Virus record (IMG/VR): IMGVR_UViG_3300050015_000276
Span: 32,001-96,000 of that record
DNA length: 64,000 nt
From: a virus
Reading direction: 5' to 3' (one strand)
In this document: piece after piece, positions 7,031 to 63,995 of the stretch
Layout of the letters: each line of letters begins with the position of its first letter
How positions within the stretch are numbered: position 1 is the first letter of the stretch
Notes under the pieces: generated by a model
What the model saw: only the letters and a program-made list of their open reading frames with translations
Told to the model about the DNA's origin: nothing
Databases searched by the model: none
Made by a program: the position numbers and the translations under genes

Positions 7031-7051
7031 CCTATTTGATAATATAAGTTC

Positions 7052-7276: not shown

Positions 7277-7294
7277 CGCGGAGTAAAAATAATA

Positions 7295-8127: not shown

Positions 8128-8171
8128 AAATAACACTTGACATCCAGACTTCGATATATTATCATAGTTTT

Positions 8172-8516
8172 ATGATGAAACGCAGCAGACACACCAAAGA
8201 AGATATGGCAATTAGGTATGAGTTCGCCTTGCAATATCTGGATGATAAATTTTTGAAGATTGATTTTCCATCAATCTATGTCCTTGTCGCTCGAAAAGGA
8301 GAAGGATTGAAAAAGAAACTTCGTTTTTTTATTTCCAGCAAGGGTGAAATTGAGGACATAACCGTGAAGGTTGCTGATATTACTGGCTTTCCTCTTTACG
8401 ATTGTTTTGATTATTTTGCCATCTATACTCACCGTACAAATAAGTTTGATATTGTCCAGAAGGTTTCGGAGAAACTCTTTGGAAATCCGAATGCCATAAC
8501 AATGGAAAAGCTTTAA
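8172..8516 (+). CDS. Hypothetical protein (leaderless)
   Basis: TTGACA 8137, TATCAT 8160, ATG 6 nt later. Confidence 0.7.
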   Translation: MMKRSRHTKEDMAIRYEFALQYLDDKFLKIDFPSIYVLVARKGEGLKKKLRFFISSKGEIEDITVKVADITGFPLYDCFDYFAIYTHRTNKFDIVQKVSEKLFGNPNAITMEKL

Positions 8517-8581
8517 TCGATTGACAATCCAATCAATCTGCGCTATACTGGTGAGTACGTTAATTCAAATAAAGGACAAAC

Positions 8582-9598
8582 ATGTCTGCAAAAAAGCCAT
8601 TTGCATTAGCTGTTGGAGATATTGTTGCTAAGTATGGAAAGATCATTTCCCGGCGAGACTTGATTGCTTACTGTCATGAGTTCCATATTATGCTGCCTGC
8701 AATTATCAGGCAGTATCGAGCCGGCCGAGGGTTTTTTAATTTGGAGCCATTACTGAATATGGCACAACAAACGAATAGCCAAATTTCAGATCCCGTTCCG
8801 CCTCCTCCAGAAATGACGGATGAAGAAATTGAAGTGGATATTAATTCTAGGTTTGCCAGCCTTGATCTGATGGCTTATGGGGTAGTTAATGGTGATTTCC
8901 GTTCTTTGATTGTTAGTGGTAATCCAGGTACAGGAAAGACTTTTACTCTCGAATCTATCATGGATGCCGCTGCGAATACTTCAAAGATCCTTTTTATTCC
9001 TGTCAGAGGATATGTTCGGGCAACTGGTCTTTATCGTTTGATGTATGAAGCCCGGCATAAGGAATGTGTCCTTCTCCTAGATGACAGTGACAGTATATTC
9101 CAAGATGAAATTTCCCTCAACCTCCTGAAAGCTGGTTTGGATACCACAAAACGCCGGCATATTTCCTGGCGTTCGGAAAAGAATTTTGTGAACGATGAAG
9201 ATGAGGATATTCCGAAGGAATTTGATTTTCTCGGAGCAATCGTCTTTATTTCCAATATAAACTTCCAACGTGAAATTGCGCGCGGAACTAAGATTGCTTG
9301 CCATTTGGACGCACTCATGAGTAGGTCGTATTACTTGGACTTGAATCTCCTGAGCACGCGGGAACTTATTGTCCGTATCAAGAGTGTTGTGGCACACACA
9401 AATATCCTTAGTGGTATGAAAATTAGTAAAAAGGACTCTGAAACAATTCTGGAATATATTACTACGAATAAGGATAAATTCCGTGAATTGAGTCTCCGGA
9501 CTGTGATTAAGCTTGGCACGATTTGGCGCGCCTCGGCCGGCGATGTTGATAAGTTCGAGAAAATGACTTCCGCGACGTGTTTGGTAAGAGGACGTTAA
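8582..9598 (+). CDS. AAA+ family ATPase
   Basis: Walker A GNPGTGKT, Walker B LLLDD, and a putative arginine finger in ALMSRS. Confidence 0.85.
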   Translation: MSAKKPFALAVGDIVAKYGKIISRRDLIAYCHEFHIMLPAIIRQYRAGRGFFNLEPLLNMAQQTNSQISDPVPPPPEMTDEEIEVDINSRFASLDLMAYGVVNGDFRSLIVSGNPGTGKTFTLESIMDAAANTSKILFIPVRGYVRATGLYRLMYEARHKECVLLLDDSDSIFQDEISLNLLKAGLDTTKRRHISWRSEKNFVNDEDEDIPKEFDFLGAIVFISNINFQREIARGTKIACHLDALMSRSYYLDLNLLSTRELIVRIKSVVAHTNILSGMKISKKDSETILEYITTNKDKFRELSLRTVIKLGTIWRASAGDVDKFEKMTSATCLVRGR

Positions 9599-9608
9599 AG
9601 GAATAATT

Positions 9609-9998
9609 ATGAGTAAACTGACATTGAATCGTAGTGATTGGAAACTGGTAGGCCACTTTGGTGTGGACGCCGGATTGTGTTGGATTGGTGACCCGTGTTA
9701 CATCCTTCACAAAGACAAGCCAGCTTACGAAGGCGCAACGCCGGAAGGTCTGCCGGAAAGTCTTGGCAAGGATTGGGGCGAGTTTTGCAATAAGTTGGAT
9801 CATAGCGGCCCTTTATTGCAGAGCTTTCCTTACGCAATGGGGCACGAAGGTTTGGGCATCTGTGTGTCCACCGGCTTCGGCGACGGCATGTATCCTGTCT
9901 ACGCTCACATCTCCGAAGAAGGTGATTGGGGAAAGCGTGTGAGTGCAATCTTCATTGACTTCCTGGGTGCGTTTGAGGATGAAAACGAAGAGGAATAA
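9609..9998 (+). CDS. DUF4241-like protein
   Basis: FGVDAG..WIGDPCY and STGFGDGMYPVY motifs. Confidence 0.6.
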   Translation: MSKLTLNRSDWKLVGHFGVDAGLCWIGDPCYILHKDKPAYEGATPEGLPESLGKDWGEFCNKLDHSGPLLQSFPYAMGHEGLGICVSTGFGDGMYPVYAHISEEGDWGKRVSAIFIDFLGAFEDENEEE

Positions 9999-10071
9999 TA
10001 TGGTTATTAAGAAACCCGGATGGTCCATGTTGTTTTGGATGAAATGATTGATAAGGGAGAAGGAGATTAGT

Positions 10072-10302
10072 ATGAAACGTGGAAACTTTGAAATCGTTCC
10101 GATTCTGGAACAACATTGTTCTGAAAAGGAACATTCTACCGGAGAAGTAATGGGTGTTAAATTTATTGATCCGAAAGGACAAGAAATTTGTGTTTATGTC
10201 AATTGTGGATCTCCAGATTATATTACTATCATCTCCAGTGATAGTATTGTTGTCCAACCGTGGTCAACCAACGTGGTACGGGTCCAACATTCCAAACTTT
10301 AA
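10072..10302 (+). CDS. Hypothetical protein
   Basis: GGAG SD followed by MKRGNFE. Confidence 0.65.
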   Translation: MKRGNFEIVPILEQHCSEKEHSTGEVMGVKFIDPKGQEICVYVNCGSPDYITIISSDSIVVQPWSTNVVRVQHSKL

Positions 10303-10339
10303 TATTTGATTTCCTAATTTCTTTGTGATACAATAAATT

Positions 10340-10519
10340 ATGCTAAAATATAAATGCCCTGAATGTGGAGGAAAAACAAAGAACCGCATTCAGGTTAAAG
10401 ATGGAAGTGAGAAAATCGCAGCACCTTGTGGTGGATGCCAGGTCAAAATATCCGAGAAGACCCACGAAATTATTGCCAAAATTTGTTTGGATTATGTAAA
10501 AAGGAATAATTACAAATGA
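10340..10519 (+). CDS. Small zinc-ribbon protein (not in ORF track)
   Basis: MLKYKCPECGG...PCGGC, 59 aa, leaderless after TTGATT/TACAAT. Confidence 0.6.
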   Translation: MLKYKCPECGGKTKNRIQVKDGSEKIAAPCGGCQVKISEKTHEIIAKICLDYVKRNNYK

Positions 10520-11133
10520 GATTACTATACACTCTGGCATTTTGTTTTCCTCTTATGGCTCAAAGCCATTTTTCTAACCTGAATAAGTTGGAAACCAGAA
10601 CCTCGCGGTTAATGCCGCAATCAACGGATTGTATAACCAAACCCTGCCAGAGTGTTGTTAATGTGGCTTGGGATTCTCAGGGTGTTCCTGATAGTAATCC
10701 TAATGTGTGGGGAAACGCCGGGTTTGTATTAGTTAATATTCCCTTTGTTAATGTTCCAGTTGGATATAGAGTTCGCATCATACGAATGTTTGGAGATTAT
10801 ATCGCATGGATCCATGGTATAGTCCAGCCGGCCACCCACACCGGGATTTTGTTTGGATTTATGCGGACACAAGATCTCCGAGAAAAAACCGGTCTTGGTT
10901 CCCTTAATATGTCATATGGTTCGGACCAGTGTTTTATGTACCATCAAGGCGCATTGTCTACTGGAGATTTCACCCAGTATTTTGACCACGATGTTTCGGC
11001 AGGAGGACTTCTCCAACCGGACAATACTATGTTGCTCCAAATTGCCGTGTTTGAAAATGAAACCGGTTCAAGTGTCCACCAAGAAGTAACATCTAACGTG
11101 GTGTATCAATTCGAGCCAAATAAAATAAATTGA
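10516..11133 (+). CDS. Secreted protein with Sec signal peptide
   Basis: MRLLYTLAFCFPLMA|Q followed by a beta-rich body. Confidence 0.7.
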   Translation: MRLLYTLAFCFPLMAQSHFSNLNKLETRTSRLMPQSTDCITKPCQSVVNVAWDSQGVPDSNPNVWGNAGFVLVNIPFVNVPVGYRVRIIRMFGDYIAWIHGIVQPATHTGILFGFMRTQDLREKTGLGSLNMSYGSDQCFMYHQGALSTGDFTQYFDHDVSAGGLLQPDNTMLLQIAVFENETGSSVHQEVTSNVVYQFEPNKIN

Positions 11134-11164
11134 CATCCGTTTGTAATTGTGATATTATGTAGTT

Positions 11165-11725
11165 ATGAATACTTTTCTAAGATTTCTAATTTCAATGGCA
11201 TTTGCACTTAGTTGCTTTGCCTCCACATTAACATTGATGAATGCTCCTACGGGCCAAACAGGACCTTATGATCTCCTGATAGATGGTACCAATGTCCAAG
11301 GTGTTTGTGTTACCTACAATATTGATATTCCTATTGGTTATACCTGGCAAGCCACCGAATACCAGGTGACTGATTTTGCAGATCCTGGAGTACAAGTCCA
11401 ATACTTCCAGGCTGAATGGCTAACACAGCAATTTGCTTCAAATCCAAATGACTATGCTGGAATCCATGATGCTATTTGGAATATTTTCGAACCCGGAACA
11501 TTCAGTGGTTTTAATGTTTCGGCATGGCAAACTTCTGCTGAACAAAATTACGGATCAGTTGATCCAAATTCCTTTAATATTTATGTGCCAAATCCAGTTA
11601 ATAGTTCACAAACTTTCCTCACTCAAAATTCTGGTGCTACTCCAGAACCGAGTTCTATTCTGCTAATTCCGGCCGGAATTGGTCTTATTGTACTCGGAAA
11701 ATTCAAACATAAGTCAGTAGTATAA
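11165..11725 (+). CDS. PEP-CTERM sorting-domain protein
   Basis: N-terminal signal peptide. C-terminal TPEPSS, hydrophobic helix ILLIPAGIGLIVLG, basic tail KFKHK. Confidence 0.85.
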   Translation: MNTFLRFLISMAFALSCFASTLTLMNAPTGQTGPYDLLIDGTNVQGVCVTYNIDIPIGYTWQATEYQVTDFADPGVQVQYFQAEWLTQQFASNPNDYAGIHDAIWNIFEPGTFSGFNVSAWQTSAEQNYGSVDPNSFNIYVPNPVNSSQTFLTQNSGATPEPSSILLIPAGIGLIVLGKFKHKSVV

Positions 11726-11736
11726 TTCCTATCCTT

Positions 11737-11766
11737 GGGGTGGCTAGACTTATGTTTGGCCACCTC
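11737..11766 (+). terminator. Hairpin, probable terminator
   Basis: GGGGTGGCTA...TGGCCACCTC after the PEP-CTERM gene. Confidence 0.5.
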
Positions 11767-11942
11767 CTCTCAAATAAATTTTAGGTTTAGTTGACATCCA
11801 ACAAAACATTTGATACACTTTTAATTATGCAATATACTAGCATGATGGTCAATTCGAATTGGAACCTACTACGGGCAGTTACCGCGCAGTTCCGGAATGC
11901 CGAGGAATTAAAGTGGTTATCTATAACGATTAGGAGAATTTT

Positions 11943-12203
11943 ATGAATAAACGAACTGTAAAAGAACGTGAACTGAAACCTGGAATGGTAATTCGTCCAT
12001 TAGATGTCACGTCTCAATTTGCCTTCTCGGATAATGTGGTTACCAAAGTAACGGATCGATTTATCACACTTGCTCGCCCATATGCCACCGGACATCTTTT
12101 GAATACGGCTTGTGGCACTTGTCTGATAGGGCTGGAAAAGTATGATGTTAATCCCAATAGTGATTGGGAATGGGAATTGTTGGAAGAAAATCGGTGGGTA
12201 TAG
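11943..12203 (+). CDS. Hypothetical protein
   Basis: AGGAG SD, 86 aa. Confidence 0.7.
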   Translation: MNKRTVKERELKPGMVIRPLDVTSQFAFSDNVVTKVTDRFITLARPYATGHLLNTACGTCLIGLEKYDVNPNSDWEWELLEENRWV

Positions 12204-12310
12204 TAAAATGGAAGAAAGTGTCATTCTGTTCTTTTATGGACTTTCGGCCATTTCCTTGTTTTCATCGTTAGTTGTCTTTGTTCGCCAAAATCTTCGAAGG
12301 ATAAATTAAA

Positions 12311-12544
12311 ATGACAACGATGATAAGGATAATTAAGATAGATGGAGTCAAATACAAATTCAATTCCACTAATTTGTGGAAATACTTGTGTGTTTATTAC
12401 TCTACCTCTTTCATATTGTATTTCCCAATTCATTATATTTTTCCGGTATGGACTTTATTTGCATTTTCTGTGATGTGTATTGTGAATGCCGCAGCATGGC
12501 CATATAAATTTCCGTGGTTGGTGGAAACTAAGGAAATTACATAA
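12311..12544 (+). CDS. Small membrane protein
   Basis: Two hydrophobic segments. Confidence 0.55.
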   Translation: MTTMIRIIKIDGVKYKFNSTNLWKYLCVYYSTSFILYFPIHYIFPVWTLFAFSVMCIVNAAAWPYKFPWLVETKEIT

Positions 12545-12548
12545 TGTT

Positions 12549-12570
12549 CTTCCCAGTAATTACTGGGAAG
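12549..12570. repeat. Perfect 22-bp palindrome
   Basis: CTTCCCAGTAA|TTACTGGGAAG. Confidence 0.9.
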
Positions 12571-12628
12571 GGTGCGTTATCATAAACAAAGACTTGACAT
12601 CCACCAAAGTATTTGATACCCTTGGTTC

Positions 12629-14221
12629 ATGAGCGCGATTACATATTCACCTCAACAGCAGGCAGTCTTGGATTTTACATCCAAGAATGGCCATGGCAAC
12701 TGCTTAATTACAGCCGTGGCCGGGTCTGGCAAGACTTTCACCCTTATGCAGGCAGTTCCTGGTTTAGAGGGATACATTGCCATTGCGGCTTACAATACAG
12801 CAATTGCCAACGAGATTGAAAGTAAACTCCAAGGAGTTCAGTTACAAGATGGAAGCCGTGTATATGTTGGAACAGTTCATCGGTTTGGACGCAAGGCTTT
12901 GTCTAAGGTTTATCCCAAGGGCAAATTACCTGCCCGTGGTGATAAGTCCAAGATTGACCAGATGATGGCATTGGTTTTCAATCCGAAAACCAAAGAAGTT
13001 GGCGTACCTCAGCATCTCCAGAGTTTTGCGAGGAAGTGTTACAATCTGGCACGTCAACAAGGCGCAGGTGTCTTACCTGAATTCCAGTTTTCCAATCAGG
13101 CAGCATGGCTTGATATGGTTGAACATTTTGATCTCCGTGATGATTTTGCCAATGCAGATGGCGATCTACCTCTGGATGTTGAACAGCTAGTCCGCGATGG
13201 CATTAACTGGGCTTGCCGTCTTATCAAATATGGCATTACAATCTTGGATAAACTTTGGGATTTCGAGGATATGATTTATGCTGTCCTCTACCAGAATCTC
13301 AGGATCGAACCAAACAATTGGGTCCTTGTGGACGAAGTTCAGGATATAAATCCTACTCGGAGAGCCTTGATTAAGAAGATGTTGGCGGTTGGTGGACGTG
13401 CAATCTTTGTTGGAGATCCAAAACAAGCAATATATGGATTTACTGGTGCCGATGCCAAATCATTCGAGAATATCCGAAAAGAATTTGATTGCACGGATTT
13501 GCCGCTCACGTGGTCATTCCGATGTGCAAAGACGATTGTTCGTTTTGTGCAGCAGTGGGTTTCCCATATTGAATCCCATCCTGATGCTCCTGAGGGAGAA
13601 GTGATTCAGACGGATGAACAGGGAATGTGGGAATTGAATCCAAATACAGATGATGCTATCCTTTGCCGCAATAATGCTCCTTTATGCCAGTTATTTTTTG
13701 AATTGTTGAAAAGAGGTATTCCATCTCATGTGGAAGGTAAGGACATTTCAGGAAAGCTACTTAAAATGGCCTCTCGCTGGCCTTCTTTGAAGTCCTTGGT
13801 TGCCCTTGGTGGAAAACTTGAAGAATATAAGGAACGTCAAATTCAAAAGGGATTACAATCTGGACGTGAAGATAAAGCGGAAGAAGTTGCTGATGTTGTG
13901 GATGCTATCCAGGCTGTGATTGCTGGTTTACCTTTTGGAAGCAAAGTTGAAGATCTGAAACGAGTTATCGCGGAAATGTTCGAAGATACCCAGGATGGAA
14001 AGAAACCAAAGAATTTAACACTTACAAGTATTCACCGTTCAAAGGGAAGAGAATGGAATCGTGTATTTTGGTATGGCCGCAATCGTTGGAACCCGAGCAG
14101 CTACGCTCGCCAAAAATGGCAAATGGAGCAAGAAACAAATCTACAATATGTCGCGGGAACTCGGGCGAAGATGACATTGGTGGATGTTAGTGTAGTTATT
14201 CCTCCAAAGAAAATGAGGTAA
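12629..14221 (+). CDS. UvrD/Rep-like SF1 DNA helicase
   Basis: AVAGSGKT, VLVDEVQD, VGDPKQAIYGF, SFRC, SIHRSKGREW and YVAGTRA motifs; leaderless start. Confidence 0.92.
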   Translation: MSAITYSPQQQAVLDFTSKNGHGNCLITAVAGSGKTFTLMQAVPGLEGYIAIAAYNTAIANEIESKLQGVQLQDGSRVYVGTVHRFGRKALSKVYPKGKLPARGDKSKIDQMMALVFNPKTKEVGVPQHLQSFARKCYNLARQQGAGVLPEFQFSNQAAWLDMVEHFDLRDDFANADGDLPLDVEQLVRDGINWACRLIKYGITILDKLWDFEDMIYAVLYQNLRIEPNNWVLVDEVQDINPTRRALIKKMLAVGGRAIFVGDPKQAIYGFTGADAKSFENIRKEFDCTDLPLTWSFRCAKTIVRFVQQWVSHIESHPDAPEGEVIQTDEQGMWELNPNTDDAILCRNNAPLCQLFFELLKRGIPSHVEGKDISGKLLKMASRWPSLKSLVALGGKLEEYKERQIQKGLQSGREDKAEEVADVVDAIQAVIAGLPFGSKVEDLKRVIAEMFEDTQDGKKPKNLTLTSIHRSKGREWNRVFWYGRNRWNPSSYARQKWQMEQETNLQYVAGTRAKMTLVDVSVVIPPKKMR

Positions 14222-14705
14222 GATATTCCGAGGCTCTTTTTAGGGTTTCGGAATTGTCTTTGAATTGCCCCAATCCTCTATTACAAGCATCACATAATAA
14301 TCCTCGGATTGTTCCGGATATATGATTGTGGTCTACGGCTAATTTTTTATGGTTTTGTGGTTTCAAACATATAGCACAGACACCATTTTGTTTGGAAAAC
14401 ATATTATCGTATTCCTCAATAGAAATACCAAACATATTCCTCAGATATTGGTTCCTTTTGGTTCTTTTGTATTTTGGAGTTTTTTCGTATTTCTGTTTAT
14501 AGGCTTTATGTTGCGGAGTTTTAGAATATTCTTTGCTGTATTCTCGTTTACTATCGGAGTTATTATATTCTTTCCGACAAGAGATGCATCCATAATCTCT
14601 GGTATTTTTTAGAGTTGTTCCACAATTTTTACAAGGTTTTCCGTTGTAGGTTTTGGCGCCGGCGGCTTTGGCTTCTTTTCTGGACGAATAAATAGTTTCA
14701 GACAT
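14196..14705 (-). CDS. Endonuclease VII-like (His-Me finger) free-standing homing endonuclease
   Basis: CAIC...LAVDHNH..G.IRGLLC..CN.GLG.FKDN. Start MSETIY has a GGAGGT SD, and a minus-strand TATAAATA lies at 14773-14780. Confidence 0.88.
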   Translation of the reverse strand: MSETIYSSRKEAKAAGAKTYNGKPCKNCGTTLKNTRDYGCISCRKEYNNSDSKREYSKEYSKTPQHKAYKQKYEKTPKYKRTKRNQYLRNMFGISIEEYDNMFSKQNGVCAICLKPQNHKKLAVDHNHISGTIRGLLCDACNRGLGQFKDNSETLKRASEYLTSFSLEE

Positions 14706-14825
14706 TCGCGGTACCTCCGTACCACATTGTTTAGAGGTCAAGTGATACGCAAATATCACTTGACCTCACATATATTTATACAACCTCTATTGACATTCCA
14801 AATAAAATGTGAGATACTTGGGAGT

Positions 14826-43250: not shown

Positions 43251-43258
43251 TATAAATA
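43251..43258 (+). promoter_or_regulatory. T4-type late promoter TATAAATA
   Basis: Upstream of gp18. Further copies at 46521, 49638, 51970 and 56688, and on the minus strand at 14773 and 17200. Confidence 0.8.
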
Positions 43259-52028: not shown

Positions 52029-53381
52029 ATGATTACCACAGATAAGCTCGTTGACAAATGGGCCGAGGTTCTTGACGACGAAAATTTTGGCAAATTGACT
52101 AATCGCCACAAACGCCGTGTAGTTGCGACGGTTATGGAGAATCAGCAAGTTGAGTTTGAAAAGACTCGCCAAATTCTTTCAGAGTCCGCTCCAACCCTTA
52201 GTACAGGTGCTGGAATTGCAAACTTTGACCCCATTCTAATTTCATTGGTACGCCGGGCTATGCCCAACTTGATTGCTTATGATGTTTGCGGTGTTCAACC
52301 AATGGTTGGACCAACCGGACTCATTTTCGCAATGAAATCGCGTTATCAATCCAAACAAGGTACAGAAGCTCTATTCAATGAAGCGAATACCGCTTTCACT
52401 GGACAAGATCCTAATGGACCTTATGGCCAAACTTGGGGTGCGCCAAATTCAACCGGTGCAACACAAACATTCTCAGGTGCAACACCTCATGCCGGTACTG
52501 ATCCTGTAGCAACTGGATTTCCTCCAACCGCTTCTGGTTATACAACTGGCCGTGCGATGCGTACTCAAGAAGCCGAAGCATTAGGCGATGGTGTGGGAGC
52601 AGACTTTAATCAAATGGCATTCAGCATTGATAAAATTTCTGTCGAAGCAAAGACCCGTGCATTAAAAGCTGAGTATTCTGTAGAAGTTGCTCAAGACTTA
52701 AAAGCTATCCATGGTCTTGATGCCGAAACCGAATTAGCTAATATTCTTTCCGCTGAAATCTTAACCGAAATCAATAGAGAGATTATCCGCACAATCTATT
52801 ATATTGCTGTCCCTGGCGCCGCACAAACTACAAATCCTGGTGTGTTTGACTTGGATGTAGATGCAAATGGTCGTTGGTCAGTTGAGAAGTTTAAGGGTTT
52901 GATGTTCCAAGTGGAACGCGAAGCCAATGCGATTGCGAAGGCTACACGTAGAGGCCGTGGGAATGTTATCATCTGTTCTAGTGACGTGGCAAGCGCATTA
53001 GTAATGGCTGGTAAATTAGATTATACTCCTGCGCTTCAGAATGATTTAACTGTTGACGATACTGGCAATACCTTTGCTGGTGTATTAAATGGTAGATTCC
53101 GCGTATATATCGATCCTTACTTCGGTAATGGTGGTGTTAATGAGGAATTCTTATTGGTAGGATATAAGGGCGCCAATGCATACGACGCGGGCCTTTTTTA
53201 TTGTCCGTATGTACCCCTACAATTATTCCGCGCTCAGGATCCACACAGCTTCCAGCCAAAAATTGCATTCAAAACCCGTTACGCAGTTGCTCCAAATCCA
53301 TTCTGGTCGGATGCTAATGCCACTCTTCAAGCTAATAGTTCCGCTTATTATAGAATGATCCGAATTATAAATCTTCTATAA
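52029..53381 (+). CDS. gp23: Major capsid protein gp23
   Basis: ISLVRRAMPNLIAYDVCGVQPM.GPTGLIFAM, LKAEYS.E.AQDLKAIHG and FYCPYVPL motifs. Confidence 0.97.
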   Translation: MITTDKLVDKWAEVLDDENFGKLTNRHKRRVVATVMENQQVEFEKTRQILSESAPTLSTGAGIANFDPILISLVRRAMPNLIAYDVCGVQPMVGPTGLIFAMKSRYQSKQGTEALFNEANTAFTGQDPNGPYGQTWGAPNSTGATQTFSGATPHAGTDPVATGFPPTASGYTTGRAMRTQEAEALGDGVGADFNQMAFSIDKISVEAKTRALKAEYSVEVAQDLKAIHGLDAETELANILSAEILTEINREIIRTIYYIAVPGAAQTTNPGVFDLDVDANGRWSVEKFKGLMFQVEREANAIAKATRRGRGNVIICSSDVASALVMAGKLDYTPALQNDLTVDDTGNTFAGVLNGRFRVYIDPYFGNGGVNEEFLLVGYKGANAYDAGLFYCPYVPLQLFRAQDPHSFQPKIAFKTRYAVAPNPFWSDANATLQANSSAYYRMIRIINLL

Positions 53382-53556: not shown

Positions 53557-54207
53557 ATGCAACCAAACATACAAAACTCATTCTTAAATAACAAATACAC
53601 TAAAACTTACATTCGTATCACAGAACGTGCCAAGGACAGGATAATTCCTTTTGGTTACACCGAAAAACATCATATAATTCCAAAATGTAAACCATTTTGT
53701 GGACCAAACACAAAAGAAAATCTGGTCTCCTTATCATTCAAAGAACATTTGGTCTGTCATCATCTGTTACTGAAAATGTGTAAAACAAAATTAGAGAAAA
53801 TGAAAATGTATTATGCATTTAACCGAATGGGGCAAACAAGTTCAAATAATAAAAGGATTATTAATCTTAAATCTTATGACAGAATTAAGACTTATTATTA
53901 TGAATTAGGTTTAGGACGAATACCTTGGAATAAAGGTAAAAAAGGTAATAACCTTAAAAAAGAAACATGTATAAAAATGTCTTTGAGCAGAATTGGAAAT
54001 AAAAATAATTTAGGAAATTTTTGGTCTAAAGAAACTTATAACAAAAATTGTTGCAATTATAAAATAACTTTTCCCGACGGACACACCGAAATTGTAAATA
54101 ATTTGAGGCAGTTTTGTAAATATAATAATTTAAATTCAGGAAATATGAATCAAGTAGCTTTAGGTAATTTTAAACAACATAAAGGTTTTAAAGCCACCAA
54201 ATTATGA
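53557..54207 (+). CDS. HNH homing endonuclease (paralog of 36664)
   Basis: EKHHIIPKCKP.CGPNT.ENLV.L.FKEH.VCHHLL motif. Confidence 0.88.
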   Translation: MQPNIQNSFLNNKYTKTYIRITERAKDRIIPFGYTEKHHIIPKCKPFCGPNTKENLVSLSFKEHLVCHHLLLKMCKTKLEKMKMYYAFNRMGQTSSNNKRIINLKSYDRIKTYYYELGLGRIPWNKGKKGNNLKKETCIKMSLSRIGNKNNLGNFWSKETYNKNCCNYKITFPDGHTEIVNNLRQFCKYNNLNSGNMNQVALGNFKQHKGFKATKL

Positions 54208-55568
54208 GAAGAAAAACAACCCAAGAATTTATTGAACAAGCAGAAAAATTATATCCGGGAAAATATTCTTATAAGAACACCGTTTATATAAAAAATTCTT
54301 CTTTAGTTAAAATACATTGTAACCTACATAATCTAGATTTTGAACAATCACCAGCAAATCATTTAAATTTTGAAGGATGTCCGGAATGTTTTTCTAACGC
54401 TCAACGAATAAAATTTTCCAAAACATCAGAACAATTTATAAAAGACGCTCAGGAAATTCATGGAAATAAATACGACTATTCTAAAACCAAATATAAATCT
54501 ATTTTAGAAAAAGTAGAAGTTATTTGTCCCGAACATGGTTCTTTTTTTGTATATCCGACAAATCATTTGAGAGGATGTGATTGTCAAAAGTGTGGTTATA
54601 ATAAAATTGCCGGAGGTTATTTTAATAAGTTTTTCCAAAAATATCCAGAAAAGAAAAATGAACCCGCAGTTATATATTTTTATAAATTTGAAAGACTAGA
54701 TGGAACTTATTTTTATAAATTAGGTATATCTACAAAAATTAAATATAGATATTCGGATAAACAATACAAAGCATTTAAAATTTCTATTATTTGGGAAGAA
54801 AATATGTCTTTATTCCAAACCTGGAATTATGAAAATATTTTAACTAAACTGTGGGAAAACTATCATTATACTCCACCAGAATCATTTAATGGAAAAACAG
54901 AATGTTATTCTAAAGAATTTTCTAAACCAAATTTTATTAATATATTTGATCATGAGTGGGAAAAGAAGAAAGAAATTATAATATCCAGATTTAATATCAA
55001 AAATCAAATAAACCAAAATATTATTCAAAAAATTCCTGCCAGAAAAACCACAATAAAAATAATTAATAAGACTGAGGCTTATAATTTTTTAGAACAAACA
55101 CATATTCAAGGATCTGTTAATTGTTCTATAGCTATAGGATTATATTTTAAAGAAAAATTAGTTTCTATAATGACTTTTGGTAAACCAAGATATTCTAAAT
55201 ATGACTGGGAATTATTACGTTTTTCGTCTGCACTAAATACTATTGTTGTTGGTGGTGCTTCTAGATTATTTCATTTTTTTACAAACGAATTTCATCCAAA
55301 AAATGTCATTTCGTATTCAGATAACAGATGGAATAAAGGAAATATATACGAAACTATTGGAATGAAATTTCTTCATAATTCTGATCCGAATTATTGGTAT
55401 ATTAAAGACGATAAGATATACTCAAGAATAAAATGTCAAAAACATAAATTACCAAAATTATTGGAAAATTTCAATCCAAACCAAACAGAATTACAAAACA
55501 TGACAAATAATGGTTTTAAAAAGGTAATTGATAATGGTAATAGTGTCTTCTTATTTGAAAATTCTTAA
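54204..55568 (+). CDS. Multi-domain putative homing endonuclease
   Basis: Two DUF723-like C..H...F...P.NHL..GC..C repeats, a central Y.Y...YKLGIS segment and a C-terminal Hef-like region (PARK..., ELLRF...VGGASRLF, SYSD.RW). Confidence 0.7.
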   Translation: MRRKTTQEFIEQAEKLYPGKYSYKNTVYIKNSSLVKIHCNLHNLDFEQSPANHLNFEGCPECFSNAQRIKFSKTSEQFIKDAQEIHGNKYDYSKTKYKSILEKVEVICPEHGSFFVYPTNHLRGCDCQKCGYNKIAGGYFNKFFQKYPEKKNEPAVIYFYKFERLDGTYFYKLGISTKIKYRYSDKQYKAFKISIIWEENMSLFQTWNYENILTKLWENYHYTPPESFNGKTECYSKEFSKPNFINIFDHEWEKKKEIIISRFNIKNQINQNIIQKIPARKTTIKIINKTEAYNFLEQTHIQGSVNCSIAIGLYFKEKLVSIMTFGKPRYSKYDWELLRFSSALNTIVVGGASRLFHFFTNEFHPKNVISYSDNRWNKGNIYETIGMKFLHNSDPNYWYIKDDKIYSRIKCQKHKLPKLLENFNPNQTELQNMTNNGFKKVIDNGNSVFLFENS

Positions 55569-56676: not shown

Positions 56677-56700
56677 GTTTTAATTCATATAAATACCTTT

Positions 56701-57210: not shown

Positions 57211-58104
57211 ATGAAAATACTCTTACTTTTAATGGCTGCATCAGGTATTATGTGGGGACAATGCCCCACAATACCGGCCACACAATATTCAGCATTAAAT
57301 ACTTTTATTAGTTCCAAAATATGTGGACTTTCTGGAACAGTTGCACCAACAGCATCGTGGTGTACAACTGCATTAGTAGGACTTGCAACATATACAAATA
57401 CAACTACAAGTATAATTTATGATTGTACTGCAAATCTTACATGGACACCTCGATCCATACCAGTATCAATTATTAATCAGAGAGGAATATTTAATTCTAG
57501 TACAATATATTCTACTGGCGATGAAGTAGGATATGGTACTCCAACAACACTTTTCATTTCATTAATTGATAATAATAGTGGAAATACACCTTCCGGTAAT
57601 TCTATATACTGGGCAATTCCAGGTCCTCAAGGTCCTGTTGGAGCTACTGGACCTCAAGGGGATACTGGACCTCAAGGTCCTGTTGGAGCTACTGGACCTC
57701 AAGGAACTACAGGAGCTACTGGCCTTACTGGTCCACAAGGACCTACAGGAAATACCGGCCCACAAGGTGCCACTGGTCCTCAAGGTCCTGTTGGAGTTAC
57801 TGGATCTCAAGGGTCTACTGGACCTCAAGGAACTACAGGAGCTACAGGGCCTCAAGGAGCTACTGGCCTTACTGGTCCACAAGGACCTACAGGAAATACC
57901 GGCCCACAAGGTGCCACTGGTCCTCAAGGATCTACAGGGCTTGGATGGATAATAAATCATGGTATTGGTGTACCAAATAGTGTATGTTCTGCTTCTGCTC
58001 AATATTGGGACATTAGTGTAACTCCACAAACATTGTGGATTTGTTCTTACGGTACAACAGGAAATAATGGTGTTTGGCAACTTATAAATACAACAGTTCC
58101 TTAG
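57211..58104 (+). CDS. Collagen-like protein with signal peptide and CBM-like motif
   Basis: [16 protein letters not shown]|Q, Y..GD.V.Y...W motif and about 36 Gly-X-Y triplets. Confidence 0.85.
57711..57929 (+). repeat. Exact 75-nt direct repeat in the collagen region (period 144 nt)
   Basis: 57711-57785 equals 57855-57929. Confidence 0.85.
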
Positions 58105-58112
58105 GATTTAAT

Positions 58113-58880
58113 ATGAAATATATTTTTATATTACTTCTAATACCTTTTTCTTTATTGAGTCAACAATTGCGCACATGTGGTTATAGGGCATCAGATAAAC
58201 CAGGAGATTGTCTTGGTTGGGTTACTCAGGGATTAACAATAACACAAGTAACCAACCTACCTAAAGTTTCAATAATGTCGCCATTTTATGATGTGATTGA
58301 TGGTATATCTGAAACAGATTGTACTATAGGAAATAATGGTACACCATTGTATCACGTACTTTGTGGACCTAATTCTACCGGAACTTCTTGGGTAGCATAT
58401 GGTGGAAGTGGTGGAAGTGGTACTATGTCTTGGCCGAACAATATTGGTATTGCATTATATGGTGGTAATAATACATGGGGAAATTCTCTTGGATTAGTTA
58501 CTAACATAAATATTTTAGGGTCGGATAATAATATCCCAAGTGAAAAGGCTGTCCGTACAGCTATTGATGAAATTTCTTCGCCGCATTATTCTATTGTGGG
58601 GTGGTCAGCAACTCCCACAATAGATATGGCAATTGCTAAAAGTTTTAAAATTACATTAACTGGAGATGTAACCACCTTATCATTTCCTACAATAACGGCA
58701 GGTATCGGAGTTACCATTATTATTTGTCAAGATTCAACTGGAGGCCATTTTCTAACATGGCCAAGTACAATACATGGAGGAATTGTGATTGGATATCAAA
58801 AAAATAAATGTTCTGTACAAGATTTTATAAGTGATGGAGTAAACTTGTACGCTAGAACATTAGGAGTGATCGATCAATGA
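58113..58880 (+). CDS. Signal-peptide fibre/adhesin-like protein
   Basis: MKYIFILLLIPFSLLS|Q; C-terminal TLTG.VT...CQD.TGG..L.WP module. Confidence 0.75.
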   Translation: MKYIFILLLIPFSLLSQQLRTCGYRASDKPGDCLGWVTQGLTITQVTNLPKVSIMSPFYDVIDGISETDCTIGNNGTPLYHVLCGPNSTGTSWVAYGGSGGSGTMSWPNNIGIALYGGNNTWGNSLGLVTNINILGSDNNIPSEKAVRTAIDEISSPHYSIVGWSATPTIDMAIAKSFKITLTGDVTTLSFPTITAGIGVTIIICQDSTGGHFLTWPSTIHGGIVIGYQKNKCSVQDFISDGVNLYARTLGVIDQ

Positions 58881-60139
58881 CGAAACAACTAACTAAATTA
58901 CTTATTTTTGGACTTTTAGGATTTTCTCTATATGGCCAAACTATTAACGGAGTACCTGTATCTAGCACTGGCATCGAACTTACAGCAAATAAAGATGCCG
59001 CGAGTGGATATGCCGGACTAACAGCGGGAACTCTTCTGAAAACGGCGGAGATGCCCGCGTTTACTGGTGATGCTACAACTGTAGCTGGTAACGTGGCGAT
59101 CACCGTAGCTAAGGTCAACGGGACTACAGTTCCGGTAAACTCGGCTGCCGACCAAGTGCTTCTAACGACAGCCTCGGCTACTGGGTCGTGGGGATCGATT
59201 GGTTCCTGTTCGGGGACCGGGCAGGCTTTGCAGTACAACACATCGACCCACGTTTTTGCCTGTGTGACTTTGGGCGTGGATGGATCAGGAACGGCGTCTC
59301 ACTTAGCCTACTATGCGGCAACAGGCTCAACCATTGCAGACGCTGGAGCCGATTTCACTTACGACGGGACGCACACGTGGTCCATGGGGGCATCTGGCAT
59401 CTTGGACTTACATGCTGCCGCTGTAGCCAACGTCAAGTTGCCGGGGGCGAGTACCACTGGGCTAGTGCGCGTGACAACCACAACAGGAGCCATAGGTAGC
59501 GCAGAGTTAAGTGGGGATGCTACGACCAATGCTTCTAATGCGGTTACGGTTGCTAAGATAAATGGAACATCTGTCCCAACTAATTCCGCTGCTGATCAGT
59601 TCCTTGGGACTACGGCGTCGGCAACTGGCGCGTGGGCATCTATAACAAATTGCCTAGACTCGGCTGGAAACCACTTAAATTACAACACCAGCACACATAC
59701 TTTTTCATGCGGTACTACTTCATCTGCGGCAGGCACAGTTACTTCGGTATCTGGAACTGCAAACCAGATAACCTCCAGCGGAACTTCTACTCCTACATTA
59801 TCTTTACCAGCTACAGTATTATTTCCCGGTATTTATCAGGATAAAGTTAATGCTGTTAGTTTCTCTGCTACTCCTGCCTTTGATCTGTCGGCAGGAAATA
59901 CAATCACTATTACTTTAACGGGTAATGTTACCGCTTCTACAATTACCAATCATGTTTCGGGCGAAAGAGTTAATTTCTTGGTTTGTCAAAATGGTACTGG
60001 TGGATATACATTTGCATGGCCCACAACTGTTAAAGGTGCGCCAACAGTAGGTACCACTTTAAGTACTTGTACTTCTGCTTCTTTTATTGATAATGGTACA
60101 AATCTTTATGCCACAGGTATCGGCAACGTCAACATGTAA
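58877..60139 (+). CDS. Signal-peptide fibre-like protein with internal repeat
   Basis: MTKQLTKLLIFGLLGFSLYG|Q; two GDATT...VAK.NGT.VP.NSAADQ repeats. Confidence 0.78.
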   Translation: MTKQLTKLLIFGLLGFSLYGQTINGVPVSSTGIELTANKDAASGYAGLTAGTLLKTAEMPAFTGDATTVAGNVAITVAKVNGTTVPVNSAADQVLLTTASATGSWGSIGSCSGTGQALQYNTSTHVFACVTLGVDGSGTASHLAYYAATGSTIADAGADFTYDGTHTWSMGASGILDLHAAAVANVKLPGASTTGLVRVTTTTGAIGSAELSGDATTNASNAVTVAKINGTSVPTNSAADQFLGTTASATGAWASITNCLDSAGNHLNYNTSTHTFSCGTTSSAAGTVTSVSGTANQITSSGTSTPTLSLPATVLFPGIYQDKVNAVSFSATPAFDLSAGNTITITLTGNVTASTITNHVSGERVNFLVCQNGTGGYTFAWPTTVKGAPTVGTTLSTCTSASFIDNGTNLYATGIGNVNM

Positions 60140-60148
60140 GAGCTAAAT

Positions 60149-60499
60149 ATGAATATGAAGATAATTTATACAATAATTTGCGTGATATTACTGTTTTCCC
60201 CGGTATTAGCACAAGCACAAAATAAACCTACAGAAGTAAAAACTACAGTGCCAAATATTAGTGAAGCGAAGCAAGTTAGTTATTGGTCAGCTAGAGCAGT
60301 AATGATGGATTCTAGGCTTCAATTGGCTAATTTACAACTATTAGGGGGTTCTGGAAAAGATTGGCAAACTGTTAATACTGATTTAAAAAATAGAGAAAGC
60401 AAATTTAATGAGATTGTAAAATCTATTGAAAATATTTGTACTATTGATATAAAATCTCTAAATTTGGGAGTATTAAAGTGCCAGGATACAACTCCATAA
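60149..60499 (+). CDS. Small secreted helical protein
   Basis: Signal peptide ending VLA|Q; a Cys pair near the C-terminus. Confidence 0.7.
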   Translation: MNMKIIYTIICVILLFSPVLAQAQNKPTEVKTTVPNISEAKQVSYWSARAVMMDSRLQLANLQLLGGSGKDWQTVNTDLKNRESKFNEIVKSIENICTIDIKSLNLGVLKCQDTTP

Positions 60500-61443
60500 A
60501 GGTAGTATTAATATTAATATTATTAAGTGTTAGTTTGTATGGCCAGACCGTTAACGGGGTTCCAGTTATTATAACTGGAACCACGACCGTTAACGGTCAA
60601 ACCTGTAATTTAGGGTCATCATGCACCATTACTGCCAGTCCATCAGGTATTGTATCTGAAGCCTTAGGTGGAACTGGAACAAATAATACACCAGGGGCCG
60701 CCGGCCATATACTTCGTAGTAATGGCAGCCATTATATTGATTCGGCAATCCAGTCGGCCGATGTTCCTCCTATAATTGCTTATACTGTAACTACGGATTC
60801 TTCTACGGCCCGTACATTATCTGCAAATGATAATGCGACAATCATTTTATTTACATCTTCATCAACAATAACTGTAACTGTACCTGCAGGATTGGGTGCA
60901 GGATATAATGTTATTATAGAACAAGGTGGAACCGGAGTAATAAATTTTACAGGTTCGGGTACCACATTACATCAACTCATTGGATTTCCTAGTACTAATG
61001 GTCAATGGGCTAAAGTTCTCCTAACTTCTGATTCAGATACATCATGGGGATTAAGTGGTAATTTATTAGGAACCGTTACTCGTACCATAGGATGCGCTGT
61101 TGGAGATCCGGCTGGTTCAGCACTTGCTACGGGAATATTATGTTATGTTCCTGTACCGACAAGTTGCACGATTTCTTCCTGGGATATAAAAGTTGATTCT
61201 GGTACAGCAACAGTTGATATTTGGCAAACAGGATCAAGTACAACTTTGCCCACAATATCAAATACAATTACGGCTTCAGCTATACCAGCAATTGCAAGTA
61301 ATACAATGATAAATAGTACAACAACAACCGGTTGGGCAACTTCAAATGGTGGCCTTATATTATTAGCCAAAGATACTTTAGCTTTTAATTTGAAAACTAC
61401 CTCTGGACCGAAATACGTATACGCCGGTATACGTTGTGAATAA
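60478..61443 (+). CDS. Signal-peptide fibre-like protein
   Basis: KVVLILILLSVSLYG|Q; modules shared with the 61464 protein. Confidence 0.75.
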   Translation: MPGYNSIKVVLILILLSVSLYGQTVNGVPVIITGTTTVNGQTCNLGSSCTITASPSGIVSEALGGTGTNNTPGAAGHILRSNGSHYIDSAIQSADVPPIIAYTVTTDSSTARTLSANDNATIILFTSSSTITVTVPAGLGAGYNVIIEQGGTGVINFTGSGTTLHQLIGFPSTNGQWAKVLLTSDSDTSWGLSGNLLGTVTRTIGCAVGDPAGSALATGILCYVPVPTSCTISSWDIKVDSGTATVDIWQTGSSTTLPTISNTITASAIPAIASNTMINSTTTTGWATSNGGLILLAKDTLAFNLKTTSGPKYVYAGIRCE

Positions 61444-61463
61444 ATATGATTAGGAGATAATAA

Positions 61464-63995
61464 ATGAAATCGTTTCTATTAATATTTTGTGCCTTTTCTT
61501 TATGGGGACAAATTGTTGATCTACCGAACAATATACCCGTTAAGAATATACCTGCGGCAGTCAATCATAATATAACTGCTTTAAGAAATGCCGTTCCACA
61601 AAAATTCTTTGGAACTATAGCACCTGGTACAATTATTGGAAATCTTCCAGGAGATTGGTATTATGATACTTCGGCTCATAATGTTTATAAATGTGGCGCA
61701 CCTGCCAACACTGCCGCACCAGCATGTACTTCTGTAGATGTTGGAGGTTGGGAACAAATTGGTGCTGGAAGTGGAAATATAACTTATCCTGGTGCTGGTA
61801 TCCCACAATCTGTTGGTGGAACATCATGGGGCACGTCACTTGGTCTAGTAACTACAGTTGGTTCTCCTGGAACAGATACACATATAGCAACAGAAAAGGC
61901 AATTGCATCCGCTTTAAGTGGTAAGGCAAATGTGGGTTCTTACGCTCCTGCTACTAGTGGTTCGTCAATATTAAAAGGTAACGGTTCTGGAGGAACAGCA
62001 TCAGCAACTTATTCGGATATTGTTGGTTTATTCGCATCTGGATCTTGCAGCGGCTACCTAAAAAATGATGGAACATGCGGTTCTGGAGGAAGTGGGATGA
62101 CTTGGCCTACTGGATCTGGTATTGCGGTCTATAATGGAAGTGCATGGGGAACTTCACTTACAGCGCCGTCTAGTGCTTTAGTAGGCACTACCGACACACA
62201 AACACTTAGCAACAAAACAATAGATGGCGTGTCACCCACAACTTTAGCCTATGTAGACGCAACTTCAAGCGTCCAGACACAACTTAATAGCAAACAGGCA
62301 ACCATTAGCGGGGCCCCCAGCACGTGGCCCTCGCTAGGCACGGCCGCATCGCACGCAGTGGCCGATTTCGAGGCCGCACTTGGCAACCCCAGCGTAACGG
62401 GGTACATTCTGTCCTCCACCACGGGCGGGTCGCGCTCCTGGATTGCACCTGCTGCGGGCGGTGGAAGTATGACCTGGCCGGCGGCTGCCGGCGTCGCGGT
62501 GTATGGCGGCAGCAGCGCCTGGGGCTCATCGCTCCCAGTGGGCACGGGAGCCAATAATCTGGTGCAGCTTGATACGAGCGCGCACCTGCCAGCGGTCGAT
62601 GGATCGGCGCTTACGGGAGTAGTGGCGTCGGGTGTAGCTGGCCCTTCCGGTACCGCAGTCCTCGTAGAGGGCGCGGAGGGAGCGAAGCCCACAGCACCGG
62701 CCAGCGGCAGCGGGAATATCTGGTTCGATTCGACTAATCACCTCCCGCAGTACCAGGGAAGCGCGGGAACAATAATCGGCACGATGGTGGTTCCGGCAGC
62801 CGCGCGAACGGTGCATCAGTTCGCTACGCACATTCCGTCTACGGGGAGTGCGGGGACGGCGGCCATCGACAATTCCGATTTGCCAACCGCGGCGCTCAGT
62901 GGCGTGCTGATATACACCGCTGGCGTCCCGGCCGCTATCGGAACCTCGGCTACCAACTGCGTGCATGAGGATGGGAGCAGCGGCGGATGTGTGGCGTCGG
63001 TACCGGTGGCCTATACGGTTACGACGGACACCACCACGGCGCGCACGCTATCGAGCGGTGACAACGCCAGCGTGATCTCGTTCACGTCATCGTCACCCAT
63101 CACGCTGACCGTTCCCAGCGGACTCGGCGCGGGGTTCAACGCCATCGTGGAGCAGGCGGGCGCTGGCGTGGTGAGTCTGACGGGATCTGGCGCCACGCTA
63201 CACCAGCTTGCGGGAAGCGCCGCCACGGCGGGGCAGTGGGCCAAGGTGGGGATATATGCCACTACTGATACGAGTTGGCAACTGACCGGCGAGCTGGCGG
63301 GGACTTCCGGATTCGCCAATCCCATGACCGGAGTCGGTGATATGATTCGCGGCGGCGCATCGGGAGCGCCCACCGCGCTAGCCGCCGACACCAGCAATAC
63401 TCGCAAGTTCCTGCGGGAGCAATCGACCGGAGGAAGCCCCAACGCCCCGGCGTGGGACACGCTGCAATCTGGAGACATCCCGAATAATGCCGCCAATACG
63501 AGCGGTACAGCGGCCGACCTGTCCGCGACGCTCTCTATCGCCCACGGCGGTACGGCGCAGACCTCCGTGCCGGGTAGCAGTGGCAATTACGTCTACAACA
63601 ACGGGGGAGCGTACGGGGCGAAGGCGCTTACGCAGACCCACGCCATCGGGTGCGGCGTTGGAGATCCGCCGGGATCGGCGCTCGCTACCGGCGTGCTCTG
63701 TTATGTGGTGGCTGCCGCGGCCTGCACAATCCAATCCTGGGACATCCTGGTAGATGCGGGGACGGCGACGGTGGACGTCTGGAAAGTGGCCAGCGGCACG
63801 GCCGTACCCACGGTGAGTAATAGCATCGTGTCATCGGCGGCTCCAGCCATCAGCACGGGGACTTCGCTGCATTCGACCACGCTGACCGGCTGGACGACTG
63901 CCGTGGAGCAGTATGACCGGATCGGGTTCAACCTGACGACAACCTCGGGTCCTAAATATATTTACGTGGGGGTAAACTGCGATGAGAGTAAGTAA
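61464..63995 (+). CDS. Large signal-peptide fibre-like mosaic protein
   Basis: MKSFLLIFCAFSLWG|Q; Gly/Ser/Thr-rich repeats (MTWP...G.AVY.G..WG.SL). Confidence 0.78.
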   Translation: MKSFLLIFCAFSLWGQIVDLPNNIPVKNIPAAVNHNITALRNAVPQKFFGTIAPGTIIGNLPGDWYYDTSAHNVYKCGAPANTAAPACTSVDVGGWEQIGAGSGNITYPGAGIPQSVGGTSWGTSLGLVTTVGSPGTDTHIATEKAIASALSGKANVGSYAPATSGSSILKGNGSGGTASATYSDIVGLFASGSCSGYLKNDGTCGSGGSGMTWPTGSGIAVYNGSAWGTSLTAPSSALVGTTDTQTLSNKTIDGVSPTTLAYVDATSSVQTQLNSKQATISGAPSTWPSLGTAASHAVADFEAALGNPSVTGYILSSTTGGSRSWIAPAAGGGSMTWPAAAGVAVYGGSSAWGSSLPVGTGANNLVQLDTSAHLPAVDGSALTGVVASGVAGPSGTAVLVEGAEGAKPTAPASGSGNIWFDSTNHLPQYQGSAGTIIGTMVVPAAARTVHQFATHIPSTGSAGTAAIDNSDLPTAALSGVLIYTAGVPAAIGTSATNCVHEDGSSGGCVASVPVAYTVTTDTTTARTLSSGDNASVISFTSSSPITLTVPSGLGAGFNAIVEQAGAGVVSLTGSGATLHQLAGSAATAGQWAKVGIYATTDTSWQLTGELAGTSGFANPMTGVGDMIRGGASGAPTALAADTSNTRKFLREQSTGGSPNAPAWDTLQSGDIPNNAANTSGTAADLSATLSIAHGGTAQTSVPGSSGNYVYNNGGAYGAKALTQTHAIGCGVGDPPGSALATGVLCYVVAAAACTIQSWDILVDAGTATVDVWKVASGTAVPTVSNSIVSSAAPAISTGTSLHSTTLTGWTTAVEQYDRIGFNLTTTSGPKYIYVGVNCDESK

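Follow-up and report, generated by a model that had tools for sequence, protein, structure and literature searches.

Why should a T4-like phage start a whole set of fibre-like proteins with the signal peptides of secreted proteins, when all tailed-phage fibres known to us are assembled in the cytoplasm? The question arises from the virus IMGVR_UViG_3300050015_000276, a complete record of 179,687 bp with direct terminal repeats, of which bases 32001-96000 (64,000 nucleotides, hereafter the window) were analysed. A sequence-only reading of the window had described six consecutive late genes whose products begin with signal peptides cleaved before Gln. All six N-termini are as written there, but the run is longer; it comprises eight adjacent genes, P1-P8, which cover 10.4 kb (window 57211-67598, P7 and P8 running past the window end) with intergenic spacings of -22 to +20 nt (Table 1). 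Export of these proteins by the Sec pathway is highly probable.

The N-termini of P1-P8 and the case for export

A signal peptide was called where a positively charged n-region is followed by an uncharged, hydrophobic h-region some 8-15 residues long and by a c-region with small residues at -3 and -1, the cut falling within the first 15-30 residues or so. By these rules all eight N-termini are of the Sec/signal peptidase I (SPI) type, and in each the predicted cut lies between a small residue (-1) and Gln (+1). A scan of the complete genome flagged 25 of 283 open reading frames (ORFs), with P1-P8 contiguous; at p = 0.06 per gene, about 6e-8 runs of eight would be expected. The gp23 surroundings of 80 related T4-like loci contain 813 ORFs, of which only 8 are signal-peptide-like, and these form no runs. 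AGGA, GGAG or AGGAG stands 5-14 nt upstream of most of the signal-peptide-inclusive starts (weak for P4, AGAG), and P2 starts at the ATG at 58113, not with a longer TTG ORF.

Such N-termini might nevertheless not be used for export: the proteins would then be cytoplasmic fibres, the hydrophobic helix serving trimerisation or baseplate insertion or being bypassed by internal starts. The cytoplasmic assembly of all fibres known to us speaks for this, as do the in-frame ATGs at codons 8 and 14 of P1 and the public P5 gene call (P0001, 302 aa), which begins at the TTG of codon 20 and clips the signal peptide (window 60478-60537). P3 and P6, however, have no alternative in-frame start within their first 30 codons. 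Across hundreds of homologues the signal peptide is kept as a property, not as a sequence, the N-termini varying freely yet retaining the n/h/c architecture, and they match the signal peptides of the likely host, Gln at +1 included. In the relatives of P8, conservation starts exactly at the predicted cleavage site, nearly all homologues having a signal peptide and then the conserved mature N-terminus Q-x-P-A-H-T-x-H-Y-P. Together with co-varying Cys pairs, which point to an oxidising compartment (see below), these features make a set that stays in the cytoplasm very improbable, and the conservation of the signal peptides upholds the exported set that had been proposed from the sequence.

The same proposal spoke of many Cys residues, and this does not hold: Cys makes up 1.42% of mature P1-P8 versus 1.41% of the remaining proteome, and only the pairing is unusual. 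The mature proteins P1 to P8 contain 6, 6, 6, 2, 6, 10, 2 and 9 Cys, respectively, an even number in seven of eight, arranged in local pairs (three in P1, three in P3, five in P6). In 112 aligned homologues of domain B, the C-terminal domain of P5 and P6, Cys206 and Cys222 occur together in 20 sequences and are both missing in 91, with one exception; Cys230 and Cys320 are likewise co-present or co-absent, again with one exception. Because the covariation is near-perfect, the members of each pair are taken as putative disulfide partners, which fits periplasmic folding. The alignment indicates disulfide bonds in domain B, in agreement with the disulfide-bonded set suggested earlier.

Two further phage proteins with signal peptides are encoded elsewhere in the window. 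One, of 205 aa (10516-11133, + strand), has the predicted cleavage site before Gln (PLMA↓Q). The other, of 186 aa (11165-11725, + strand), combines an N-terminal signal peptide with a C-terminal PEP-CTERM region (P-E-P, hydrophobic stretch, basic tail; NCBIfam TIGR02595, 17.6 bits versus a cut-off of 16), for which a host exosortase would be required.

Among P1-P8 themselves, a lipobox with Cys at +1 is present in none of the eight (P1 has Q-C), and a strict regular expression for the lipobox found no match genome-wide. No type IX secretion system (T9SS) or PEP-CTERM sorting domain of NCBIfam matched P1-P6 at E<=1. Tests of P1-P6, and inspection of P7 and P8 by eye, revealed neither a membrane anchor nor a lipobox or sorting signal. 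This bears on the possibility that the proteins are exported to alter the surface of the infected cell, whether by masking receptors against superinfection, as decoys, or in adhesion and aggregation, in the manner of lysogenic-conversion proteins or morons. The phage does encode the PEP-CTERM protein described above, chromosomal copies of the family occur in Acidobacteriota, and Q-rule signal-peptide proteins of Porphyromonas gingivalis prophages have been proposed to remodel the host envelope (PMC10367356). The P. gingivalis case likewise shows phage genes written in the signal-peptide style of the host; it concerns, however, five temperate-phage genes of unknown function, whereas the eight genes here are late, adjoin one another in a T4-like phage of lytic type and encode recognisable fibre and glycanase bodies. 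Eight genes and 10 kb would be large for exclusion, and late-promoter-like motifs head the unit, while exclusion functions are usually early. A surface-altering role is, in our judgement, very improbable.

Table 1 Features of the signal-peptide gene block and its immediate surroundings. Positions are those of the window; the cleavage site predicted for each signal peptide is marked by an arrow.
Feature	Length	Position	Strand	Description
TATAAATA, T4-type late-promoter-like		56688-56695	+	5 nt before the ORF at 56701, head of the unit
Two small paralogous ORFs	71 and 100 aa	56701-57203	+	No signal peptide; 45% identical to each other
P1	297 aa	57211-58104	+	Signal peptide 57211-57258 (MWG↓Q), Cys-paired N-domain, collagen repeats ~57595-57939, small C-terminal tip
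Second TATAAATA		58083-58090	+	Inside the 3' end of P1, 22 nt before the P2 start
P2	255 aa	58113-58880	+	Signal peptide 58113-58160 (LLS↓Q), one shaft repeat, C-terminal domain C 58596-58874
P3	420 aa	58877-60139	+	Signal peptide 58877-58936 (LYG↓Q), shaft module repeats, C-terminal domain C 59855-60133
P4	116 aa	60149-60499	+	Signal peptide 60149-60211 (VLA↓Q), small body, helical-looking by composition, one Cys pair
P5	321 aa	60478-61443	+	GTG start 60478, signal peptide 60478-60543 (LYG↓Q), domain A 60775-60993, C-terminal jelly-roll domain B 61072-61440
P6	843 aa	61464-63995	+	Signal peptide 61464-61508 (LWG↓Q), three shaft repeats, domain A 62994-63305, domain B 63630-63992
Predicted recombination junction inside P6		62274-62304	+	GC content at third codon positions (GC3) 0.21 upstream, 0.72 downstream
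P7	253 aa	63982-64743 (genome 95982-96743)	+	Signal peptide ...CMCSVS↓QG; only the start lies within the window
P8	952 aa	64740-67598 (genome 96740-99598)	+	Signal peptide ...AIVTWA↓QT

Fibre modules, folds and a predicted glycanase

The bodies of P1, P2, P3, P5 and P6 are supported, by sequence comparison, as tail-fibre modules common to classical fibres that have no signal peptide. The Gly-X-Y repeats of P1 match the Pfam Collagen family (PF01391, 5e-16, 58.6 bits versus a cut-off of 27.2) and the protein matches PHROG tail-fibre families at 1e-30 to 1e-35. P2 (PHROG tail fibre, 1.5e-4) shares its domain C with the C-terminus of P3 (37% identity), and its shaft repeat matches P6 three times. 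Domain C also ends gp36 of Arthrobacter phage Jinkies, a protein without signal peptide encoded by the last gene after the baseplate J gene, while domains A and B are common to P5 and P6. The five fibre- or collagen-like bodies described earlier therefore stand on PHROG, Pfam and fold evidence, and the small P4 looks helical by composition; P8, which the earlier description did not include, is glycoside-hydrolase-like.

The AlphaFold2 (AF2) model of P5 has a predicted local distance difference test (pLDDT) score of ~90 for both domain A and domain B, and the structure prediction called for by the sequence-only reading returned a fold resembling a tail-fibre tip. The best fold matches of domain B are YomS (Z 8.3), XepA (Z 8.2) and the tail-fibre tip of Agrobacterium phage 7-7-1 (9rkv; Z 8.2, Foldseek E 1.4e-4), and it also resembles discoidin and carbohydrate-binding (CBM) folds; since all these matches are near Z 8, they indicate a fold class only. 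The predicted viral structures of BFVD that match the P5 model at E<=1e-3 number 315, with fibres, spikes and collagen-like proteins among them. XepA and YomS, the top matches over ~100 residues, belong to the lytic cassettes of Bacillus subtilis PBSX and SPbeta (PDB 6i56, 6i5o; PMC6834076), and a PDB entry is titled 'PBSX exported protein XepA'. XepA is also taken up in a paper on non-classical secretion that is independent of signal peptides (PMC1266369). They are, however, pentameric lysis-cassette proteins of a Gram-positive host with 6-7% identity to domain B, and kinship with them was set aside as too weak to use, Z 8.2-8.3 being common for unrelated folds.

Small signal-peptide proteins are also encoded directly 5' of the domain-B fibre in two contigs (L003 and L131), and phmmer found no homology between P4 and the small signal-peptide proteins 5' of fibres in other contigs. 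A role of P4 as an i-spanin was considered and dropped, since the search for a lipoprotein partner was negative and the c-region of P4 looks open to cleavage.

Homologues of P7 come after domain-B fibres in three contigs (L012, L142, L156), and its nearest Atlas clusters are >90% viral. The AF2 model of P8 (pLDDT 83, predicted template modelling score 0.82) contains a triosephosphate isomerase (TIM) barrel closest to the glycoside hydrolase family 168 (GH168) endo-fucanases (Z 15.1, root-mean-square deviation 3.9, 323 aligned residues). The GH168 endo-1,3-fucanases 9jos, 9jof and 9nhf (PDB) align over ~320 residues at Z 14-15, with 9-13% identity; in contrast to them, P8 has large inserted beta-domains, one of which (residues 101-319) resembles a phage-tail component, the chain 9efk_M of the LME-1 phage portal-tail complex (Z 16.6). 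D394, E470, D498, D517 and D577 are invariant in the P8 family alignment. On the model, P8 has a GH168-like TIM-barrel glycanase fold and is predicted to be an enzyme, not a fibre. In a metagenomic protein of 1,238 aa (P0169), a single signal peptide is followed by a P7-like part and, joined to it, a P8-like part, a fusion that suggests joint action of P7 and P8.

Family and database searches yielded little beyond this. P4, the two small ORFs upstream of P1 and the 205-aa ORF at 10516 have no match in Pfam, PHROGs or NCBIfam, and P7 and P8 no family match in Pfam or PHROGs. In tblastn searches of ~50,000 cultured-phage records, P5 and P2 have no match, and P3 and the N-terminal part of P6 only short, weak ones.

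In their modular build P1-P8 resemble classical fibres and spikes (T4 gp34-37 and gp12, P2 gpH, the PBR31 spike, Jinkies gp36), with which they have shaft repeats, collagen-like stretches, beta-sandwich tips and glycanase domains in common, and in both the distal modules are swapped by recombination. They differ in that the classical proteins have no signal peptide and are assembled in the cytoplasm, whereas all of P1-P8 have signal peptides and a Cys pattern of the exported type. They differ also in position: the P1-P8 block sits after gp23 and not in a baseplate operon, while homologues in relatives come after tail-tip or baseplate genes.

Relatives, host lineage and history of the block

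The P5 family has 3,804 cluster representatives at E<=1e-3. Among the best 160, a signal peptide followed by Gln is present in 95 and another signal peptide in 24 (~75% together). A survey of related phages for signal peptides on the same modules, which the sequence-only reading had recommended, covered 39 viral contigs (GC 0.50-0.64) and found them on 28 of 38 domain-B genes; these genes usually lead runs of 2-5 signal-peptide genes that end the tail module. A signal-peptide homologue is preceded by a J-like tail protein in the prophage L002, by Baseplate_J and DUF2612 genes in L147 and by an RcGTA-type host-specificity protein in L153. On a contig of a P22-like podovirus, the ejection proteins are followed by a beta-helix protein with signal peptide and Gln. 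Past the signal peptide, this protein retains a segment with 45% identity to residues 26-91 of the Xanthomonas phage PBR31 tail spike; the PBR31 spike occupies the same place in the gene order and is free of a signal peptide. Judged from such contigs, the P5 family is spread over myo-, sipho- and podovirus-like phages of one dominant soil phylum. One idea for some of these loci (L147, L153, L145, L146) is a 'split fibre', in which a short adaptor free of signal peptide would precede an exported distal part; the short proteins concerned have no Pfam match.

The phylum is indicated by the genomic homologues. Eleven species-representative genomes contain domain B; ten of them are Bryobacteraceae, Bryobacterales or Terriglobia metagenome-assembled genomes (MAGs), several of them from peat; the sole 'Bacteroidetes' record is a 7-kb contig. 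All those genomic homologues that were read start with a signal peptide and Gln. In 400 kb sampled from a Bryobacterales MAG (G001, contig C10; loci L018-L037), the predicted +1 residue is Gln in 42 of the 154 N-termini that resemble signal peptides (27%, with a background of 3.8%), and no other residue exceeds 8%. Since the signal peptides of this Bryobacterales genome show the same bias, Gln at +1 is best seen as a habit of the host lineage. As an export feature noted earlier it is indeed present in all eight proteins, but it is not special to them, being the norm of the likely Acidobacteriota host. This Gln at +1, the acidobacterial homologues and the PEP-CTERM protein of the phage all point to an acidobacterial host, which we regard as well supported.

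The Q-rule has been described as specific to Bacteroidetes (PMC5837995), in which Sec/SPI cleavage exposes a Gln at +1 that is converted to pyroglutamate (PMC5837995; PMC10653852). P1-P8 share the small residue at -1 and the Gln at +1; here, however, the homologues and the Gln-biased genome are acidobacterial, and pyroglutamate formation is putative, by analogy. The glutaminyl cyclase family Glu_cyclase_2 (PF05096) occurs in one of three candidate host-lineage genomes, the Bryobacterales one (L017), and was not found in the phage genome. From sequence, the Acidobacteriota bias looks like an independent or overlooked case of the Q-rule.

The phage itself is T4-like. Among cultured phages, the best matches to its gp23 come from marine cyanophages, pelagiphages and Methylophilales phages, and none exceeds 58% identity. 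Its closest relative (84% gp23 identity) has, directly after gp23, a homologue of the gene after P8. Base composition divides the block. GC3 is 0.13 in P1, and the maximum-likelihood change point falls at codon 275 of P6 (window 62289), beyond which high GC3 holds through P7 and P8 to window 67598 (the last 5.3 kb). The last 162 aa of P6 are 76% identical to P0002, a protein of a 59%-GC phage contig (L003), and blastn gives 75% over 410 nt; there, too, genes for signal-peptide proteins of ~240 and ~1,000 aa come after the fibre gene. By composition and similarity, the last 5.3 kb was recently acquired from a high-GC donor, with the junction within P6. As P1-P5 have taken on the low GC of the phage, signal-peptide fibres have apparently been kept by it for long; it still imports distal modules from high-GC phages of presumably the same hosts. 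A native, low-GC N-terminal part with a foreign distal part, as in P6, is the usual pattern of fibre evolution.

Downstream (3') of gp23 (52029-53381) lie two ORFs, a probable glycosyltransferase gene, the TATAAATA octamer at 56688, the two small paralogues and the packed + strand run. The late promoter and glycosyltransferase placed here by the sequence-only reading are thus partly recovered: the octamer is at 56688, while the gene 5' of the unit reaches glycosyltransferase families at 26.7 bits, just under the Pfam cut-off of 27. The octamer also occurs 5' of gp23 (51970) and of an 861-aa ORF at 43321 (copy at 43251), but a single match is weak evidence because the window holds 10 copies against 6.5 expected. 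The 71- and 100-aa ORFs have a G-F-I-V-x-N...G-G-V-W motif resembling, by eye, the C-terminal tip of P1. After gp23, the ORF at 53557-54207 (in window 53557-55568, +) has an HNH-like signature by eye, and its N-terminus, of the form ...NKYTKTY.RI..RAK...EKHHI.PK, recurs in two other ORFs, at genome 141615-142247 and 178913-179680 (-); from their sequences, these three look like homing-endonuclease-like paralogues, one of them at the edge of the island. Between ~14000 and 34000 of the window all ORFs are short (<=202 aa), with GC 0.42-0.51 versus ~36% for the phage.

Action of the exported proteins on the particle or free

We tentatively propose that the block is a horizontally mobile host-recognition kit, composed of five fibre-like glycan binders, a small partner and a beta-sandwich and glycanase pair, whose members are exported and dock at lysis. 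The first part of this proposal is strongly supported: the Sec pathway of an Acidobacteriota host of Terriglobia or Bryobacterales type exports all eight proteins, signal peptidase I cleaves them before Gln as it does the host's own secreted proteins, and they fold in the periplasm with disulfide bonds. Beyond this, the kit would be produced late, alongside the particle, and would reach fibre-less particles in the cytoplasm once the holin opens the inner membrane; the fibre-like members could then dock on the particle, and the P7-P8 pair would attack the polysaccharide coat of the host, either on the particle or free. The fibres of T4 attach last, and their addition to fibre-less particles is possible in vitro. 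A link of the set with the virion is suggested indirectly by the fibre positions of signal-peptide homologues, by the spike-like segment of the podovirus protein, by the exchanged distal part of P6 and by the late-promoter-like motifs of the unit. It is possible, though we hold it with less confidence, that this holds for Acidobacteriota phages at large, their fibres and spikes being exported by Sec, folded oxidatively in the periplasm, attached after holin action and capped by pyroglutamate at the N-terminus.

Several observations weigh against docking. The signal-peptide calls come from heuristic n/h/c-region and -3/-1 rules. No proteomic or experimental datum on the presence of signal-peptide fibres in virions was found, and a paper on cultured Acidobacteriota phages (PMC11924767) is silent on signal peptides and reports no analysis of virion proteins. 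Mature P3 and P5 open with a shaft repeat and the barrel of P8 lies at the mature N-terminus, which leaves no evident anchor domain. The phage has further large structural proteins without signal peptides, e.g. one of 1,873 aa. In podovirus-like relatives, the signal-peptide proteins failed as the only spike candidates, because both of the two contigs examined also encode beta-helix proteins without signal peptide. The whole 14-kb block is an accessory island, since the closest relative lacks it after gp23. Finally, in three Terriglobia/Bryobacteraceae genomes (L006, L007 and L008; ~6850-14740) a domain-B cassette occupies one conserved chromosomal locus with no phage genes nearby; it encodes a domain-B protein with signal peptide and Gln (453-500 aa), followed by signal-peptide proteins of 2,140 aa or of 386 and 1,441 aa. 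The domain-B family can thus work without a particle.

Some of these points are equally what would be expected if the proteins were exported but remained free, as glycan-binding and glycan-cutting factors of tail-fibre ancestry that never enter a particle. Around a cell undergoing lysis, such factors would strip or occupy exopolysaccharide and receptors, which would keep progeny from being trapped and would expose cells nearby. The accessory nature of the island, the chromosomal cassettes and the glycoside-hydrolase-type barrel that begins at the mature N-terminus of P8 are in line with this, and so are signal-peptide pectate-lyase-like proteins among the relatives and beta-helix proteins without signal peptide that co-occur in related contigs. 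In addition, the signal peptide occupies the position of the N-terminal attachment region of classical relatives (P0101 and P0014 compared with signal-peptide members). Free factors, however, would leave unexplained why signal-peptide proteins hold the fibre position in relatives of three tail types and why one relative retains a tail-spike N-terminal region behind its signal peptide. Five fibre-like paralogues with ongoing module swapping would be a heavy investment for free lectins, and such proteins would have to cross the outer membrane before lysis, yet P1-P6 have no T9SS or PEP-CTERM signal. Free action is a serious possibility, and we slightly favour docking at lysis over it.

Neither signal-peptide fibres nor DsbA-dependent fibres nor Acidobacteriota phage virion proteins have a precedent in the literature searched, which fits the earlier suggestion of an undescribed system. 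That T4-like fibres lack signal peptides, as the sequence-only reading had assumed, agrees with a literature in which signal peptides are treated as a mark of bacterial, not phage, proteins (PMC6199706). Filters that discard signal-peptide proteins will miss receptor-binding proteins in host prediction, and gene callers can clip such signal peptides, as with P5, so that annotation can hide the feature. For an uncultured phage such as this one, Gln at +1 and the homologues in Acidobacteriota give an indication of the host phylum.

The assembly of tailed-phage particles is regarded as wholly cytoplasmic, and here a host-recognition kit appears to be routed through host secretion. If the proteins act free, phages of Acidobacteria would secrete lectins and glycanases derived from tail fibres, which bears on the movement of soil viruses through exopolysaccharide and on carbon turnover. 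If instead they join the virion, this would be a new assembly route, an extracytoplasmic branch of tailed-phage morphogenesis, and it would explain fibre disulfides suited to acidic peat.

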